From the IMG/VR virus record IMGVR_UViG_2913123054_000003, positions 1-4,426 of that record: 4,426 bases of DNA. One strand, given 5' to 3'. Made by a program: the position numbers and the translations under genes. This DNA comes from a virus. Lineage: Duplodnaviria > Heunggongvirae > Uroviricota > Caudoviricetes. The notes under the pieces were generated by a model that saw only the letters and a list, made by a program, of their open reading frames with translations, did not search any database and was not told the origin of the DNA. Below, one piece after another: positions 1 through 4,426 of this stretch; the stretch's first letter is position 1; every line of letters begins with the position of its first letter.

Positions 1-405
1 AACCATCTGGCGGCGGCTATCGGGAATCGCCTGCTGAAAGATGGCCAGACAGTGATTGTGGTTACCGTGGCTGATGTCATGAGTGCTCTACACGCCAGCT
101 ATGACGACGGGCAATCAGGCGAAAAATTTTTGCGGGAACTGTGCGAAGTGGATCTGCTGGTTCTTGATGAAATTGGCATTCAGCGCGAGACAAAAAACGA
201 GCAGGTGGTGCTGCACCAGATTGTTGATCGCCGGACAGCGTCGATGCGCAGCGTGGGGATGCTGACAAACCTGAACTATGAGGCCATGAAAACATTGCTC
301 GGCGAGAGGATTATGGATCGCATGACCATGAACGGCGGGCGCTGGGTGATTTTTAACTGGGAGAGCTGGCGCCCGAATGTTGGTCAGCCAGGAATTGAAA
401 AGTAA
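1..405 (+). CDS. DnaC-like replication protein (helicase loader), 5'-truncated by window edge; C-terminal ~134 aa present
   Basis: Frame 1 is open from base 1 to TAA at 403-405. Translation ([29 protein letters not shown]...[70 protein letters not shown]...) aligns by eye with the C-terminal half of E. coli DnaC as I recall it, including the Walker B-like DLLVLDEIG and the MLTN / LLGERxMDRM / WVIFNW blocks. Confidence 0.88.
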
Positions 406-427
406 TTTTTACCGGGAGGAAATTTTA

Positions 428-1177
428 ATGGAAACCGTTTTTGATGCACTGAAAGCAATGGGAAAAGCCACGTCGGTAGAACTGGCAGCGCGACTTGATA
501 TCAGTCGTGAAGAAGTGCTGAACGAGCTGTGGGAACTGAAAAAGGCTGGCTTCGTTGATAAAAGCGTATACACCTGGCGTGTGGCTGATAACAACGTTCA
601 GCAGGAACAGCCAGCACTGCCGGAAGAAACCACTACGGCAACAGTGACGAAAATTTCGGAGAGCGATTTAACTTCGACGATTGAACAACGTGGCCCACAA
701 ACGGCGGATGAACTGGCTACGCTGTTCGGTACAACATCCCGCAAAGTGGCTTCAACGCTGGCAATGGCAATCAGCAAAGGTCGTCTGATTCGCGTTAATC
801 AGAACGGTAAATTTCGTTACTGCATACCGGGCGAAAAAATTAACGATATGAGCGCGCAAAGTACTGCACTGGTGCAAGTGGGCTCGGACGCTGACAAAAA
901 CGAAAAACAGAGCGATCGCAATCGTTTTTCGCCAACAAAAAGACATGAGCAGAGCGAAGAAACTGTAGCAGACATTGTGCAGTCGCTGCCATCGTTTACC
1001 GAAACGCGAGCGGATGACCTCGTTCTGCCATCGCTGCATCTGGCAAGCCGCGAACTGCGTCGGGCGAAAGGCCATGTCCAGAAGTGGGAGCGTGTCTGCG
1101 CCGCGCTGCGAGAGTTGAACAAGCACCGGGATATTATCGCCCAGCTTTGCCAGGAGGCAACCAGTGAGCAAGATTGA
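428..1177 (+). CDS. Prophage protein with two tandem winged-helix-like modules (resembles DUF1627-family proteins found next to prophage replication genes); 249 aa
   Basis: ATG at 428 preceded by GGAGG (415-419) with 8-nt spacing; the track's upstream ATG at 377 lies inside the dnaC-like gene and has no SD. Two similar segments ([46 protein letters not shown] and [40 protein letters not shown]) look like HTH/winged-helix units. Stop TGA at 1175-1177. Confidence 0.75.
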
Positions 1178-1185
1178 CTACCAGG
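1153..1185 (+). repeat. Gene-junction linker repeat, copy 1 (33 bp: SD + GTG start + first codons of downstream gene / last codons of upstream gene)
   Basis: ggaggcaaccagtgagcaagattgactaccagg matches 1609-1641 at 31/33 positions. Confidence 0.85.
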
Positions 1186-1370
1186 AATTGGCTGCTGCTA
1201 ACGCTTTCTTGGCGGATGTGCGGGCTGGGGCGTTTAACGACCTTTGCGCGGCGTTTGTCAGGCACGCAAAAATTGCAGGACTGGACGATGGCGGTCTCGT
1301 TACGGTGAAAGAAGCGACTGATGCGTTGCTGCACTGTGCAGAACAGCTTCGGGAGGGATTCAAGCAATGA
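1164..1370 (+). CDS. Small protein (68 aa) carrying the Ea22-like leader (MSKIDYQEL) joined to a segment resembling the C-terminal module of the downstream 213-aa Ea22-like protein
   Basis: GTG start at 1164 with AGGAGG (1152-1157) 6 nt upstream; overlaps the upstream stop by 14 nt. AFLADVRAG...[10 protein letters not shown] resembles AFLAEVRAQG...ICDELAAQLRKG near the C-terminus of the 1620..2261 protein. Stop TGA at 1368-1370 overlaps the next ATG (ATGA). Confidence 0.6.
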
Positions 1371-1633
1371 GTGAATCAAAATGCCAGGTTTATGGCAACA
1401 AGATAGAACCGTGTACGGCCCTGGCAAAATCCCTTGAGCATGATGCTGAATACACGACGCGAAAAGGTTTGCTGATATACAAAATCTATAACCATGAATT
1501 AATTCATTCACAAGACCTGATCATGCTGCGGTCAGGCGAGTTTTCTAAATCGCCGATTCGAATTTCATTTTGCCCGTTCTGTGGTGAAAGTCTGAAAACG
1601 TGGGAAGCGGAGGCAACCAGTGAGCAAAATTAA
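1367..1633 (+). CDS. Small Cys-rich protein, putative zinc-ribbon (88 aa)
   Basis: ATG at 1367 overlaps the upstream stop (ATGA); GGGAGGG at 1351-1357. Cys pattern C6, C16 ... C69-x2-C72 (FCPFCG). C-terminus EATSEQN repeats the C-terminus (EATSEQD) of the 428..1177 protein. Confidence 0.7.
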   Translation: MSESKCQVYGNKIEPCTALAKSLEHDAEYTTRKGLLIYKIYNHELIHSQDLIMLRSGEFSKSPIRISFCPFCGESLKTWEAEATSEQN

Positions 1634-1641
1634 CTACCAGG
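1609..1641 (+). repeat. Gene-junction linker repeat, copy 2
   Basis: ggaggcaaccagtgagcaaaattaactaccagg; differs from copy 1 at two positions (g/a, g/a). Same 14-nt overlap geometry between stop and GTG start. Confidence 0.85.
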
Positions 1642-2261
1642 TACTACGTGAGATAGCAAAACAGGCAACACAGGGCGAATGGGTCGCATTTATTTCGACG
1701 GGTACTGGTACGTATGCGGTGCATACGCCCGGTGATAAACGATGTGAAGACGTTATCAAATGGACCGGCTTTGACGGACAGAAAAACGCAGAGAACAACG
1801 CTCGTTATATCGCAGCTTTCAACCCTGCAGTAGTGCAGGCACTGCTGGATGAGCGGGAAGCCCAAAGCAAACGCATTGCAGAGATGGAGACTAATCTTGC
1901 GGCGCTGGCAGCGGAGAATGCGAGACTGAAGGTGATGTGTGAGGACCGCCGCAGGTTCATCATGAAAGGGGTGCAACTGGGGTATATCAAGGTGCCAAAA
2001 GCGGAAACAGATCCGGACCTTGAGACAATTCGTATTGCTATATCACCACAAAAGCCCATTCCAGCCACCGATGCTTTTTTGGCTGAAGTAAGGGCGCAGG
2101 GGGTAGAGATGATGCGCGAACACCCATCAATCAAACTTTGCTCTTTGACGCACATATGTGATGAGTTAGCCGCCCAGCTTCGCAAAGGAGAGCTGCATAT
2201 GATGTTTGACGCTGGCATTCACATCAAAGGAGAAGAGCATGGAAATAAAACCAGAAGATGA
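1620..2261 (+). CDS. Ead/Ea22-like family prophage protein with central coiled coil (213 aa)
   Basis: GTG start at 1620 with GGAGG (1609-1613) 6 nt upstream, inside a 33-bp repeat of the 1153-1185 junction. N-terminus MSKINYQVLREIAKQATQGEW and the IAAFNPAVVQALLDEREAQSKRIAEMETNLAALAAENARLK heptad-like stretch fit my recollection of Ead/Ea22-like proteins. Stop TGA at 2259-2261. Confidence 0.72.
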   Translation: MSKINYQVLREIAKQATQGEWVAFISTGTGTYAVHTPGDKRCEDVIKWTGFDGQKNAENNARYIAAFNPAVVQALLDEREAQSKRIAEMETNLAALAAENARLKVMCEDRRRFIMKGVQLGYIKVPKAETDPDLETIRIAISPQKPIPATDAFLAEVRAQGVEMMREHPSIKLCSLTHICDELAAQLRKGELHMMFDAGIHIKGEEHGNKTRR

Positions 2262-2595
2262 GTTAAGTAATATTGTTTTATTTCCGGTAAAAGAGGATGA
2301 CCCACGTAATCAGGTTAATTTTCTTTATGAGCCATCGGAAAGACCATATTGCCATCATGCCTCTGTCCGGGTTGACGAAAAAGAGCGTCAGGTCCGCTGT
2401 AAAATCTGCGGTGCAGTTGTGGAGCCATTTGACTGGATGCTCTCTGTGGCGAAAAGAGAAACCAGACTGGCAGATGATGTAAGGCTATTGCTCCAGGAGG
2501 AACAGGAAAGGCGAAAAAATATAGAAAAGCTAATTCAGATTGAGCGTAACGCGAAAGCGCGGATACGCAGAGCGACAAAATCCAGAACTGAATAA
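2239..2595 (+). CDS. Hypothetical Cys/His-containing protein, possible zinc-binding, with basic coiled-coil C-terminus (118 aa)
   Basis: ATG at 2239 (MEIKPEDEL...) with AGGAG at 2228-2232, 6-nt spacing; preferred over the track's ATG at 2206, which has no SD. Overlaps the upstream gene by 23 nt. Motif YCHH...x14...CKIC. Stop TAA at 2593-2595. Confidence 0.7.
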   Translation: MEIKPEDELSNIVLFPVKEDDPRNQVNFLYEPSERPYCHHASVRVDEKERQVRCKICGAVVEPFDWMLSVAKRETRLADDVRLLLQEEQERRKNIEKLIQIERNAKARIRRATKSRTE

Positions 2596-2661
2596 TTAAA
2601 TTTAGTGCTGTAAATAAAGTTTAATCCTTAACCGGAGGGATTTCTTCACCCTCAAAACATC

Positions 2662-2695
2662 AGGAGGCCGCCCGAAAGGGCGGTAATGAAAAATG
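2662..2695 (+). promoter_or_regulatory. Translation-initiation region with a GNRA hairpin between the SD and the start codon
   Basis: AGGAGG at 2662-2667 is followed directly by a perfect 6-bp stem CCGCCC (2668-2673) / GGGCGG (2678-2683) closing a GAAA loop (2674-2677), then 9 nt to ATG 2693. Linear SD-ATG distance is 25 nt; folded, it is about 9 nt. No U-run follows, so it is not a canonical intrinsic terminator. Confidence 0.45.
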
Positions 2696-3208
2696 ACAGA
2701 ATTAACCAAAGAGCAATTAATCGAAGAAGCCAAATTAAAAATAGCGATTGCGAAATGCCACCCCAATTCAGGGATGGCACGGGTAGAGGGCGAGTTATTC
2801 AAAATTGCACTGGCATCGCTGGAAGCAGAACCGATAGCGTGGGTATGCGGAGAAAACATAATCCTGTTTAATCCTGACACAGTTGAAGCATATGCAAAAC
2901 GTGCGGAGATATCACCTAAACCACTATTCGCCGCCCCGCCAGTGCTACCTGATAGACCGGTAGTGTCGCTGGAAGCAGAGCCGGTTGTAGACAGCGAGTG
3001 GTGGACGCTCTTACGGCAGTTCCTGATTGAACTTCAGGATCGCCGCAAAAACAGCATTTCTGAATCTGGAATCCGTGCTGAAACCCTGAACGATTTAATA
3101 CGACATATTGACAGAAACCTGGATATTGACGCGATGAAATCGCCGTTTGAACTGTCATCTGAAATTGTGGATTACGTTAATAAGCAACTGCGCAAGGAGA
3201 ATGCGTAA
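2693..3208 (+). CDS. Hypothetical prophage protein (171 aa) with an N-terminal module shared with the downstream DUF551-like protein
   Basis: ATG at 2693; long ORF with enterobacterial-like codon usage. Shares FKIALASLEAEPIAW and LFAAPP with the 3797..4297 protein; SLEAEP recurs internally (VVSLEAEPVV). Stop TAA at 3206-3208 overlaps the next ATG (TAATG). Confidence 0.75.
   Translation: MTELTKEQLIEEAKLKIAIAKCHPNSGMARVEGELFKIALASLEAEPIAWVCGENIILFNPDTVEAYAKRAEISPKPLFAAPPVLPDRPVVSLEAEPVVDSEWWTLLRQFLIELQDRRKNSISESGIRAETLNDLIRHIDRNLDIDAMKSPFELSSEIVDYVNKQLRKENA
2804..2832 (+). repeat. Module repeat copy A encoding IALASLEAEP (29 bp)
   Basis: attgcactggcatcgctggaagcagaacc matches 3911-3939 at 26/29. 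A 17-bp sub-copy (tcgctggaagcagagcc) recurs at 2966-2982 inside the same gene. Confidence 0.75.
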
Positions 3209-3384
3209 TGCAGGTGGCATTTGTTGGCTTATTACCGCACCCGATCCGCCTTTGGGCGGATATGTCACTCATAAAATCGCATTTTTTTACTACTGATGGC
3301 GGCATCCCGGCACCAAAGCGCCGCCATACAGGTATTGCAGCGGCACGACGTGCAGCAAAGAAACGCAGGAGAGCAAAACGATGA
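3208..3384 (+). CDS. Small hypothetical protein (58 aa) with strongly basic C-terminus; not in the ORF track (below length cutoff)
   Basis: ATG at 3208 overlapping the upstream TAA; GGAG at 3196-3199, 8-nt spacing. My translation: MQVAFVGLLPHPIRLWADMSLIKSHFFTTDGGIPAPKRRHTGIAAARRAAKKRRRAKR. Stop TGA at 3382-3384 overlaps the next ATG at 3381 (ATGA). Contains two GC-rich inverted repeats, so the region could instead be structured non-coding RNA. Confidence 0.35.
   Translation: MQVAFVGLLPHPIRLWADMSLIKSHFFTTDGGIPAPKRRHTGIAAARRAAKKRRRAKR
3244..3261. other. GC-rich inverted repeat (7-bp stem ATCCGCC/GGCGGAT, 4-nt loop)
   Basis: Perfect complementarity read directly from the sequence. The nearest T-run (3283-3289) is about 21 nt downstream, so it is not a canonical terminator. 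Confidence 0.5.
3296..3327. other. GC-rich inverted repeat (8-bp stem ATGGCGGC/GCCGCCAT, 16-nt loop)
   Basis: Perfect 8-bp arms with the same GGCGG/CCGCC core as the hairpins at 2668-2683 and 3244-3261. Confidence 0.45.
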
Positions 3385-3575
3385 AAAACCGTAAAGCAAA
3401 GATTCTGTTAGCTCGCAGAAACGGTGTTGGGGTCTGGCGATGGTTGAGGATTAGTAACAGACGAGTGAGGTTGACGGGGTGTTGCGGGGTGATGGGTCAC
3501 AGCTGTTGCAAAAAGCCCAGCGCGGCACAAAACCGCTGGAGAAATCACAGTTCTAAGCAAATTAAATGGGAGTGA
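3381..3575 (+). CDS. Small basic Arg/Trp/Cys-rich hypothetical protein (64 aa)
   Basis: ATG at 3381 with AGGAG at 3367-3371, 9-nt spacing; coupled to both neighbours (ATGA upstream, 1-nt gap downstream). Rich in rare Arg/Gly codons (AGA, AGG, CGA, GGG), so coding status is uncertain. Confidence 0.35.
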   Translation: MKNRKAKILLARRNGVGVWRWLRISNRRVRLTGCCGVMGHSCCKKPSAAQNRWRNHSSKQIKWE

Positions 3576-3576
3576 T

Positions 3577-3795
3577 ATGACTACACTATTCAGGAAAAAT
3601 TATCCGCGAAAGAGCAGAGCAACAGAATTCCTGTTTCTCATTCTGTTTATCGTGTTGATGACACCGATATTCCCGCTAATTTTTGTCTGGGTAATCGGGA
3701 AAATAATTGAGCCAGTTATTGAATTGTATAACGACGTGGTATGGGCGTCGTTCAACACACTGCACAATAAAATTAATCCGTATAAGGAAAACTGA
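3577..3795 (+). CDS. Small membrane protein (72 aa) with one predicted transmembrane helix
   Basis: ATG at 3577 one nt after the upstream TGA; GGGAG at 3568-3572 (short 4-nt spacing). Hydrophobic stretch FLFLILFIVLMTPIFPLIFVWVIG. Visibly more AT-rich than flanking genes. Stop TGA at 3793-3795, 1 nt before the next ATG. Confidence 0.5.
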   Translation: MTTLFRKNYPRKSRATEFLFLILFIVLMTPIFPLIFVWVIGKIIEPVIELYNDVVWASFNTLHNKINPYKEN

Positions 3796-3796
3796 T

Positions 3797-4297
3797 ATGG
3801 CAACTATTACCAGAGAAAGCGCAGAGATTAAATCATTCATCACTGGTTTTCTGAGCGATTCGGCGCACGATAACCAATCCTCAAACAGCCTGCTTGCCAA
3901 TGTGTTTCGTATTGCGCTGGCATCGTTGGAAGCAGAGCCAGTGGCATATCAGTATCGCCAGTGGGATGCAGAATATGATGAATGGGGAGAATGGGAAGAT
4001 TGCGGAGAATGCGTTTACGAAGGATTTGTTGAGGAAGAGAAATGTCAGGGGGCAGGTGTTCAGACCCGTAAGCTATATGCCGCGCCGCCAATTTCGGTAA
4101 CTCCGGATGGTTGGATAAGCCGTAGTGAGCGAATGCCGAACGACGCGCAGTGGTGCGTAGTGAACACAGAATACGGGTATTACGTGCAATGCTGGTCTGA
4201 AGGTCAAGGGTGGCTTGGTGATGATATCAGTATCCCTGAATGCGATGTAATCAATTGGATGCCTCTACCAGAACCGCCGCAGGAGGTGAATCAATGA
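3797..4297 (+). CDS. DUF551-like prophage protein (166 aa) with N-terminal IALASLEAEP module
   Basis: ATG at 3797 with AAGGA at 3785-3789, 7-nt spacing; the track's ATG at 3707 lies inside the upstream gene. C-terminal DGWISRSERMPNDAQWCVV...CDVINWMPLPEPP matches my recollection of the DUF551 signature (WIS..ER.P ... W.PLPEPP). Stop TGA at 4295-4297 overlaps the next ATG. Confidence 0.8.
   Translation: MATITRESAEIKSFITGFLSDSAHDNQSSNSLLANVFRIALASLEAEPVAYQYRQWDAEYDEWGEWEDCGECVYEGFVEEEKCQGAGVQTRKLYAAPPISVTPDGWISRSERMPNDAQWCVVNTEYGYYVQCWSEGQGWLGDDISIPECDVINWMPLPEPPQEVNQ
3911..3939 (+). repeat. Module repeat copy B encoding IALASLEAEP (29 bp), in the DUF551-like gene
   Basis: attgcgctggcatcgttggaagcagagcc; 26/29 identical to 2804-2832. 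Confidence 0.75.
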
Positions 4298-4377
4298 CCT
4301 GGCCTGAAGCATTCACAACGGTAGGAATTGCAATGGTGGTGGCGCTGGTGGTGTATTCGATTTGCCGCTGGGGATAA
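4294..4377 (+). CDS. Very small hydrophobic peptide (27 aa), single predicted TM helix; not in the ORF track
   Basis: ATG at 4294 overlapping the upstream stop (ATGA); strong AGGAGG at 4281-4286, 7-nt spacing. My translation: MTWPEAFTTVGIAMVVALVVYSICRWG, stop TAA at 4375-4377. Confidence 0.35.
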   Translation: MTWPEAFTTVGIAMVVALVVYSICRWG

Positions 4378-4426
4378 AAACGATTTGCGGGAAAAGGATA
4401 GTTAAGTAGAATTGCTGCGGGTGCTT

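Follow-up and report, generated by a model that had tools for sequence, protein, structure and literature searches.

The DNA analysed here (IMG/VR virus record IMGVR_UViG_2913123054_000003, positions 1 to 4,426; referred to below as the window, 4426 bp) is the whole of contig VATU01000035.1 of assembly GCA_005781255.1, and an identical sequence is contained in a 740-kb contig of a second assembly. It is the early-right accessory region of a lambdoid prophage. Two of its genes, whose products we call P1 and P2, are the subject of this work. The two proteins are paralogues from a hyper-mosaic family, whose members are early accessory proteins of lambdoid prophages in Enterobacteriaceae, and they have in common two short motifs, J1 and J2, which join otherwise different pieces of coding sequence (Table 1). 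The exact P1 protein is on record in 2 contigs only. The exact P2 protein carries the name 'DUF551 domain-containing protein [Escherichia sp. E4385]', and its homologues and the gene calls place its start at ATG 3797 and not at the upstream in-frame TTG 3707.

A preliminary description of the window had drawn attention to a 29-nucleotide (nt) block that is nearly the same in both genes, and the block is indeed there: ATTGCACTGGCATCGCTGGAAGCAGAACC at 2804-2832 and ATTGCGCTGGCATCGTTGGAAGCAGAGCC at 3911-3939 are identical in 26 of 29 positions, and the three mismatches (GCA/GCG, CTG/TTG and GAA/GAG) are all synonymous. The second copy of SLEAEP that had been noticed inside P1 was found again as well (TCGCTGGAAGCAGAGCC at 2966-2982, with the SLEAEP codons occupying 2966-2983). 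An L(F/Y)AAPP motif, said to follow 35-45 residues later, is present in both proteins as LFAAPP (P1 residues 78-83, positions 2924-2941) and LYAAPP (P2 residues 93-98, positions 4073-4090), but the spacing needs correction, as the distances measured from the P of SLEAEP are 30 and 44 residues.

The remaining pieces of the two proteins, which we call cassettes, are different. The A cassettes, which precede J1, read MTELTKEQLIEEAKLK... in P1 and MATITRESAEIKSFITGF... in P2; the B cassettes, which lie between J1 and J2, read VCGENIILFNPDTVEAYAKR... and QYRQWDAEYDEWGEWEDCGEC...; and the C cassettes, which follow J2, also differ. That the C-terminal regions are unrelated, as had been proposed, is borne out by the Pfam domain DUF551 (PF04448), which matches P2 alone (residues 105-162, 36.8 bits versus a cut-off of 22, E 7.1e-09) and has no match in P1 at E <= 1. 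A BLASTP comparison of P1 with P2 gives 29% identity over 111 amino acids (aa) with an E of 2e-08, and nearly all of this similarity comes from the two motifs. As P1 and P2 share only J1 and J2, it was from these joints and nothing else that a common module had earlier been deduced. We considered two simpler origins of the shared block and rejected both. It is not a part of DUF551, since the Pfam match does not include the J1/J2 region (P2 residues 39-99), and it is not a low-complexity or chance resemblance, as a second match with three or fewer mismatches occurred in 0 of 200 dinucleotide shuffles and the motif belongs to a large conserved family.

Searches for homologues returned 357 proteins with residues 1-92 of P1 and 6538 proteins with P2. 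A profile built from P1 and its relatives found 2945 clusters (50% identity) at E <= 1e-3 and 696 at E <= 1e-10, and in these hits the module nearly always begins at residue 1. Among the best 150 profile hits, the protein length ranges from 66 to 423 aa. Annotations within the family vary and include EaA, Ea22, DUF551 and hypothetical protein. The members follow one plan, in which an N-terminal piece A, mostly with an MTTITKE-like start and existing in many unrelated versions, is followed by J1, (R/K)IALASLEAEP(V/I)A(W/Y), by a piece B of about 20-50 residues, again in many unrelated versions, and by J2, (P)LY(A/T)APP.PV(V/T)P(D/E). One to several C pieces come after J2, and they often end in ...GWNACRAAMLQG... 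or in DUF551.

These pieces are reassorted extensively. In 241 homologous proteins, about 17 A types and 13 B types occur in 49 combinations. The IMG/VR database was scanned with a degenerate-codon pattern that allows every synonymous codon of ALASLEAEP and thus avoids codon bias; it returned at least 119 stretches, nearly all of them from the P1/P2 family, and at least 99 distinct segments contained at least 24 A types and at least 44 B types. No other B type was as common among the homologues as that of P1, which occurs together with many A and C types; the B type of P2 is found with at least five different A types. A Pfam search of 136 representatives detected DUF551 in 57 and a MazZ-like dATP/dGTP pyrophosphohydrolase domain in one, with no match in the others. 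The C-terminal cassette of P1 is rare: it is otherwise found in 3 clusters of stand-alone proteins of 102-109 aa (plus one 56-aa fragment), and the 109-aa type was traced to CPS-53-like prophages, where it lies in a yfdP-yfdQ context.

Several phage contigs carry two J1-bearing genes. Four IMG/VR loci (L029, L042, L049 and L056) have two matches each, with the J1 copies ~400-660 bp apart, like those of the window, and three others (L102, L103 and L120) have two contexts each. Paired paralogues with direct J1 repeats thus appear to be a common arrangement. Two short contigs (L128 and L131) assigned to a metagenome-assembled genome (MAG) of Segatella copri contain typical enterobacterial family members with Escherichia-type J1 codons, and these copies are most likely a binning artefact and do not point to a Bacteroidota host.

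The preliminary description had explained the common part of P1 and P2 as a single N-terminal targeting or interaction module that was shuffled onto different effector domains. The shuffling is strongly supported, as the C-terminal partners of the same N-terminal pieces include DUF551 and more than 10 others. The single common module did not hold, for P1 and P2 differ in both their A and B cassettes, each of which reassorts independently, and a targeting role of the shared part emerges from no result of this analysis. One may still propose that a conserved N-terminal module of ~70-100 aa, with a targeting or interaction function, is fused to different C-terminal effectors across the family. 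PHROGs 5117, 660, 60 and 3323, families of phage proteins of unknown function, align with both proteins from residue 1 (E 2.5e-26, 1.5e-22, 9.8e-16 and 2.3e-10 for P1; 3e-12, 6.3e-15, 3.9e-35 and 7e-04 for P2), and the module is almost always N-terminal. Moreover, J1 residues I38, A39, L40, S42, L43, A45 and P47 (numbering of P0242/P1) are at least 90% conserved in the 136 representatives, and with a conservation this strong the helix of J1 might in itself serve all members for binding or oligomerisation. However, the N-terminal regions of P1 and P2 have no detectable similarity outside J1 and J2, A and B reassort independently of each other and of C, and the flanks of J1 are at random DNA identity. 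We therefore regard a conserved module of this kind as unlikely. Other searches gave no further lead: P1 had no match in Pfam, and the NCBIfam search was likewise empty; the Ead/Ea22-like family PF13935 matched neither P1 nor P2 at E <= 1; and PADLOC returned no match for either protein.

The joints are also islands of conservation at the DNA level. The pair and codon figures given here and below refer to the IMG/VR matches listed, and the units counted are sequences and not independent events. Among 4300 pairs whose members have neither the A type nor the B type in common, the identity is ~0.25, which is the random value, on both flanks of J1, whereas the third positions of its L-A-S-L-E-A-E core are identical at 0.98, 0.88, 0.79, 0.52, 0.82, 0.47 and 0.60 in the same pairs. 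The wobble sites at the edges of J1 (the first Ala and the Pro) remain at baseline. The codon choice within J1 is equally distinctive: its Ser is TCG in 82 of 94 contexts, compared with 10% in the flanks of the same genes, and its second Ala is GCA in 88 of 94, compared with 25%. A similar, though weaker, DNA island is found at J2 between unrelated flanks. The wobble position of the first Ala (2809 and 3916 in the window; GCG, GCA or GCT) is unlinked to both of the neighbouring cassette types, and its identity stays at the baseline of 0.40-0.46 even where the adjacent A DNA is more than 90% identical, while nearby sites are linked.

A scan of one genome per species found J1 with the same codons in Escherichia, Shigella, Enterobacter, Citrobacter, Trabulsiella, Pseudocitrobacter, Huaxiibacter, Pseudescherichia and Edwardsiella, and the drift of the Edwardsiella J1 at synonymous sites argues against an absolute requirement for the DNA sequence. 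Three chance hits, in a Bacillus genome, a Rhodospirillaceae MAG and a Succinivibrionaceae MAG, have other codons and provide an internal control. Two J1 haplotypes were distinguished, an Escherichia type (ATT GCR CTG GCA TCG CTG GAA GCA GAR CCG) and an Enterobacter/Trabulsiella type (ATC GCG CTG GCA TCG CTC GAA GCG GAG CCT). Each of them (loci L008-L152) spans many unrelated A and B contexts and follows the host genus, a pattern that suggests concerted evolution in separate pools of phages.

A nearly invariant DNA core of ~21 nt (CTGGCATCGCTSGAAGCRGAG), present two to three times per phage both in the window and in four or more IMG/VR loci, is what one might expect if J1 were a dedicated cis-acting site of programmed diversification, served by a shufflon-like recombinase or by a diversity-generating retroelement. 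We rejected this possibility and consider it extremely unlikely. All three copies in the window are direct repeats on the + strand and not inverted ones, a recombinase or reverse transcriptase is absent from the called genes of the window and of a 12.5-kb context (L001), and the variation consists of the replacement of whole cassettes and not of point mutagenesis. In addition, the Edwardsiella copy has diverged synonymously, and no Rfam family was matched in the window.

The exchange points themselves map to the joints. In 315 pairs with the same near-identical A and unrelated B, the identity persists into J1 and reaches the baseline by +20 to +26. In 65 pairs with identical B DNA and unrelated A, it drops between +2 and -4 of J1. 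Linkage to A and linkage to B decay, in other words, at the opposite edges of one ~25-nt block. At J2, the near-identity of the window with another family member (the P0001 gene, locus L006) stops inside the joint, at ~2938.

P1 offers an individual case of such an exchange. Its left part is that of a P0245-type gene of a sister assembly (L154), with one base different, through ...LFAAPPVLPDRPVVSLEAEPVV (SLEAEP-VV), and its right part is almost the same as a gene of CPS-53-like prophages that encodes a stand-alone 109-aa protein (L003, P0121 type). In a three-way alignment of the window with L154 and L003, only GCCGGTTGTAG (2980-2990, 11 nt), at the 3' edge of the second SLEAEP, is common to all three sequences. 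P1 is, as judged from this alignment, a chimera with its left crossover within 2980-2990. The three sequences are alike again at ~3309, and hence a cassette of ~320 bp was replaced. The second SLEAEP is not a product of this fusion, as it is already present in the P0245-type parent, where it precedes a cassette that elsewhere follows the canonical J1 (L045).

The joints were then located on predicted structures. In the AlphaFold2 (AF2) model of P1, helices 6-22 and 27-44 form a confident hairpin with a predicted local distance difference test score (pLDDT) of 86-95, and helix 2 finishes in ...IALASLE, so that J1 is its C-terminal end. Residues 45-97 are of low confidence and are followed by helices 101-120, 129-142 and 151-170. 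The AF2 model of P2 has helices 6-19 and 29-45, the second one again finishing in J1. Its B unit is a small alpha/beta structure (strands 49-57 and 67-72, helix 75-81 and strand 88-94), which extends from just past J1 to the LYA of J2, and a proline-rich stretch (95-102, pLDDT <50) leads from there to the beta-rich DUF551 domain. Judged by these limits of helices, strands and linkers, J1 and J2 fall at predicted domain boundaries. When the P2 model was compared with the PDB and the P1 model with BFVD in fold searches, nothing significant was returned (best E 1.0 and 0.11, respectively). As the models comprise several domains and their confidence is low to moderate, the fold gives no functional clue.

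The explanation that we consider probable is that J1 and J2 are conserved domain-boundary elements that double as in-frame recombination patches. The joints would be structurally constrained as a helix end, as the ends of B strands and as a flexible linker, with J1 made up of the end of helix 2 of A and the first residues of B, and J2 of the last B strand and the proline-rich linker. Such a constraint would make them the sole sequence, in both DNA and protein, that diverged or unrelated alleles have in common, and being the only shared sequence they could act as in-frame patches of homology. General or phage-encoded recombination between co-resident phages or prophages would then resolve at the joints and swap the cassettes, and the products would survive because they are in frame and cut between domains. 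Homologous or microhomology-assisted recombination is the likely mechanism. By analogy with Ea22, the family proteins may be host-interaction factors, with the helical N-terminus as a scaffold from which variable small domains are presented on flexible linkers.

The length of the shared sequence bears directly on this explanation. The longest exact match across J1 reaches at least 23 nt in 18% of the pairs with unrelated flanks, and its median is 14 nt, compared with 3 nt in control flanks. The published minimum for efficient pairing is 23-27 bp with Red-beta, and for RecA a minimum of 31-34 bp is given (PMC3945230). Several observations weigh against recombination patches. The J1 copies within the window share perfect runs of 9-10 nt only, and the mapped crossover of 11 nt is shorter than the published pairing minimum, so that at least some events are due to microhomology or are illegitimate, and do not represent classical homologous recombination. 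Since the J1 haplotypes track the host genus, a part of the synonymous conservation is due to shared descent, and the pair figures, being counts of sequences, do not correspond to independent events. The amino-acid constraint on J1 could be purely structural in cause or due to binding, and the AF2 model of P2 is of low confidence overall (mean pLDDT 62.9, predicted template modelling score 0.35).

The same short matches would be explained by a model of the Hendrix type, in which illegitimate joints form anywhere, selection keeps those that are in frame and at domain boundaries, and J1 and J2 are conserved for structure only. Both the mapped P1 crossover and the median exact match across J1 are under the Red-beta minimum, and boundary sequences are lacking at most mosaic joints (PMC3029335). 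Under such a model, however, the synonymous sites of J1 are expected to be as diverged as the domains, and they are instead 0.8-0.98 identical between random flanks. The decay of linkage at the opposite edges of one short block also argues against it. Events at the level of microhomology clearly contribute, and the model is a real rival, but alone it leaves the synonymous conservation and the opposite-edge decay unexplained, and we judge it quite unlikely.

A bolder version of the recombination-patch explanation is that J1, J2 and related joints (...AMLQGAEPV...) are kept as in-frame recombination linkers and form a natural combinatorial system of domain shuffling. We find this version doubtful, though not far-fetched. 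If it were true, lambdoid phages would draw on a common stock of cassettes to assemble thousands of different small early proteins with several domains, plausibly with targets in the host or in competing phages as the source of diversifying selection, and the conservation of the joint DNA would be a part of what is selected or homogenised.

Several known systems resemble the P1/P2 family. Ea22 proteins have been published as mosaic, with DUF551 as a 'portable' C-terminal domain (PMC10834534). The lambda Ea22 and Shiga toxin (Stx) phage Ea22 variants are, like P1 and P2, early lambdoid accessory proteins with a helical N-terminus and interchangeable C-terminal domains that include DUF551 (Ea22_V2; PMC10834534), and PHROG 60 links the Ea22-like N-terminus, the P1/P2 module and DUF551 in one profile. 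In contrast to Ea22, P1 and P2 lack a long coiled coil, in whose place they have a short helical hairpin, and they give no Ead_Ea22 Pfam match. Their family exchanges at several internal joints and not at the C-terminal domain alone, and PMC10834534 contains no description of J1 and J2. The 'EaA protein' of Stx phage PA32 (L153, 1291-1950) consists of a coiled coil ...KRIAELEAEL-VSQTYKLPHTQFEQ...NSPVTPDGWISCSERMP (DUF551). Its RIAELEAEL resembles the RIALASLEAEP of J1, and it is followed by a VSQTY-initiated segment (VSQTYKL) of the kind that follows the canonical J1 elsewhere. This resemblance hints that J1 may be related to the end of an Ea22-type coiled coil.

The DUF551 protein that has been studied is YfdS of E. 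coli CPS-53 (PMC4776307). Like the family described here, YfdS is a prophage early-region protein; P2 carries a DUF551 that passes the threshold, and the parent of the C cassette of P1 lies in the CPS-53-like yfdP-yfdQ context. The difference is that in the P1/P2 family DUF551 is just one choice among many terminal cassettes, carried by 57 of 136 representatives, and the shared motif lies outside it.

Short conserved boundary sequences were proposed as recombination sites by Susskind and Botstein (1978) and Clark et al. (2001), as cited in PMC3029335. The proposal is an old one, and such sites have mostly been judged rare (PMC3029335). Relaxed homologous recombination by Rad52-like phage recombinases has also been described (PMC3945230, PMC2327257). 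The P1/P2 family conforms to the boundary-sequence model in having short blocks conserved in DNA, unrelated sequence on both sides, exchange points inside the blocks and modules in many combinations. It departs from the model in that its blocks lie inside coding sequence, in frame and at predicted domain boundaries, that there are several of them per gene, and that they are also under constraint as protein sequence.

The motif string ASLEAEP was not found in the searchable literature, where the J1/J2 joints, their conservation at the DNA level and the scale of the reassortment also appear to be undescribed. P1 and P2 are an unusually clear case of phage gene mosaicism and not something fundamentally new, either in the kind of protein or in the evolutionary process. 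Phage mosaicism is usually put down to illegitimate recombination, the reason being that joints seldom show conserved boundary sequences. The P1/P2 family is a compact and abundant counter-example, with several in-frame boundary sequences per gene and dozens of cassettes on either side, and it is a convenient natural system in which to measure the share of short homology in module exchange. The family is very common in prophages of E. coli, Shigella, Salmonella and Enterobacter, including Stx phages. There is also a practical warning, in that protein similarity and family assignment by PHROGs or BLAST may rest on the joints alone.

Table 1. Genes and other features of the window, with the component parts of P1 and P2 (ORF, open reading frame).
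Feature	Position	Strand	Remarks
DnaC-like protein, 3' end	1-405	+	
DUF1627	428-1177	+	
68-aa ORF	1164-1370	+	after DUF1627
88-aa ORF		+	after 68-aa ORF
Ead/Ea22-like gene	1620-2261	+	Pfam PF13935, E 5.4e-26
Zinc-ribbon protein	2239-2595	+	
P1	2693-3208	+	171 aa; ORF and gene call; A, J1, B, J2, short spacer, second J1-type joint, C-terminal helical cassette
A cassette of P1	2693-2803	+	residues 1-37, first part of helical hairpin
J1 of P1	2804-2842	+	IALASLEAEPIAW; includes 29-nt block 2804-2832
B cassette of P1	2843-2923	+	VCGENIILFNPDTVEAYAKRAEISPKP
J2 of P1	2924-2944	+	LFAAPPV
Second J1-type joint of P1	2966-2990	+	SLEAEP 2966-2983 and 11-nt microhomology GCCGGTTGTAG 2980-2990
C-terminal cassette of P1	2991-3205	+	DSEWWTLLRQ...KENA, three predicted helices
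58-aa ORF		+	after P1
64-aa ORF		+	after 58-aa ORF
Re-convergence block	3309-3420	+	right border of the replaced ~320-bp cassette; end of 58-aa ORF and start of 64-aa ORF; window, L154 and L003 alike
DUF4014	3577-3795	+	
P2	3797-4297	+	166 aa; ORF, gene call and Pfam; A cassette, J1, B cassette, J2, DUF551
J1 of P2	3911-3949	+	IALASLEAEPVAY
B cassette of P2	3950-4072	+	QYRQWDAEYDEW...VQTRK
J2 of P2	4073-4093	+	LYAAPPI, then low-confidence proline-rich linker
DUF551 domain of P2	4109-4282	+	residues 105-162, Pfam PF04448

The order of genes in the prophage region starts with a cI-like repressor, Cro, YdaT, an unannotated 208-aa gene and the DnaC-like protein with whose 3' end the window opens. 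Beyond P2 it continues with hok/gef, DUF1367, YbcO, a Q-like antiterminator candidate and lysis genes. The antiterminator candidate is a DUF1133 protein, its Phage_antitermQ match being merely faint. All listed genes of the region lie on the + strand, and the lack of a sigma-70-like promoter within 2500-4426 fits a single operon. Pieces of the window resemble Stx, Rac-like and other Escherichia phages at 90-95% identity, and any one record covers 30% of it at most, which is typical of mosaicism.

The operon of P1 and P2 also contains a classical gene-boundary 'linker'. It is a 33-nt direct repeat (1153-1185 and 1609-1641, 31 of 33 positions identical) located at two gene junctions, where it supplies the upstream gene with the C-terminal end ...EATSEQ(D/N)* and overlaps the GTG start, VSKI(D/N)YQ, of the next one. 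The genes that start at the two copies are the 68-aa ORF and the Ead/Ea22-like gene.

At the other end of the window, an uncalled ORF encodes a hydrophobic peptide of 27 aa, MTWPEAFTTVGIAMVVALVVYSICRWG (4294-4377). Its ATG overlaps the stop codon of P2 (ATGA), and a strong Shine-Dalgarno sequence, AGGAGGTGA, precedes it at 4282-4290. The segment 4270-4426 is matched in 1504 of 5426 complete E. coli genomes, with the best match 95-99% identical in 1023 records and 98.1% identical in the top hits. In the eight listed matches to this segment, the DUF551 gene alone is annotated.

Upstream of P1, a GC hairpin (2667-2684) lies between the AGGAGG at 2662-2667 and the start codon at 2693. It has a GAAA loop and is stable (minimum free energy of -16.9 kcal/mol for a 61-nt segment, z = -3.2). 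If folded, the hairpin would bring the Shine-Dalgarno sequence within the normal distance of the ATG. The element travels with the A cassette type of P1 and is also present in L006 and in the IMG/VR locus L010.

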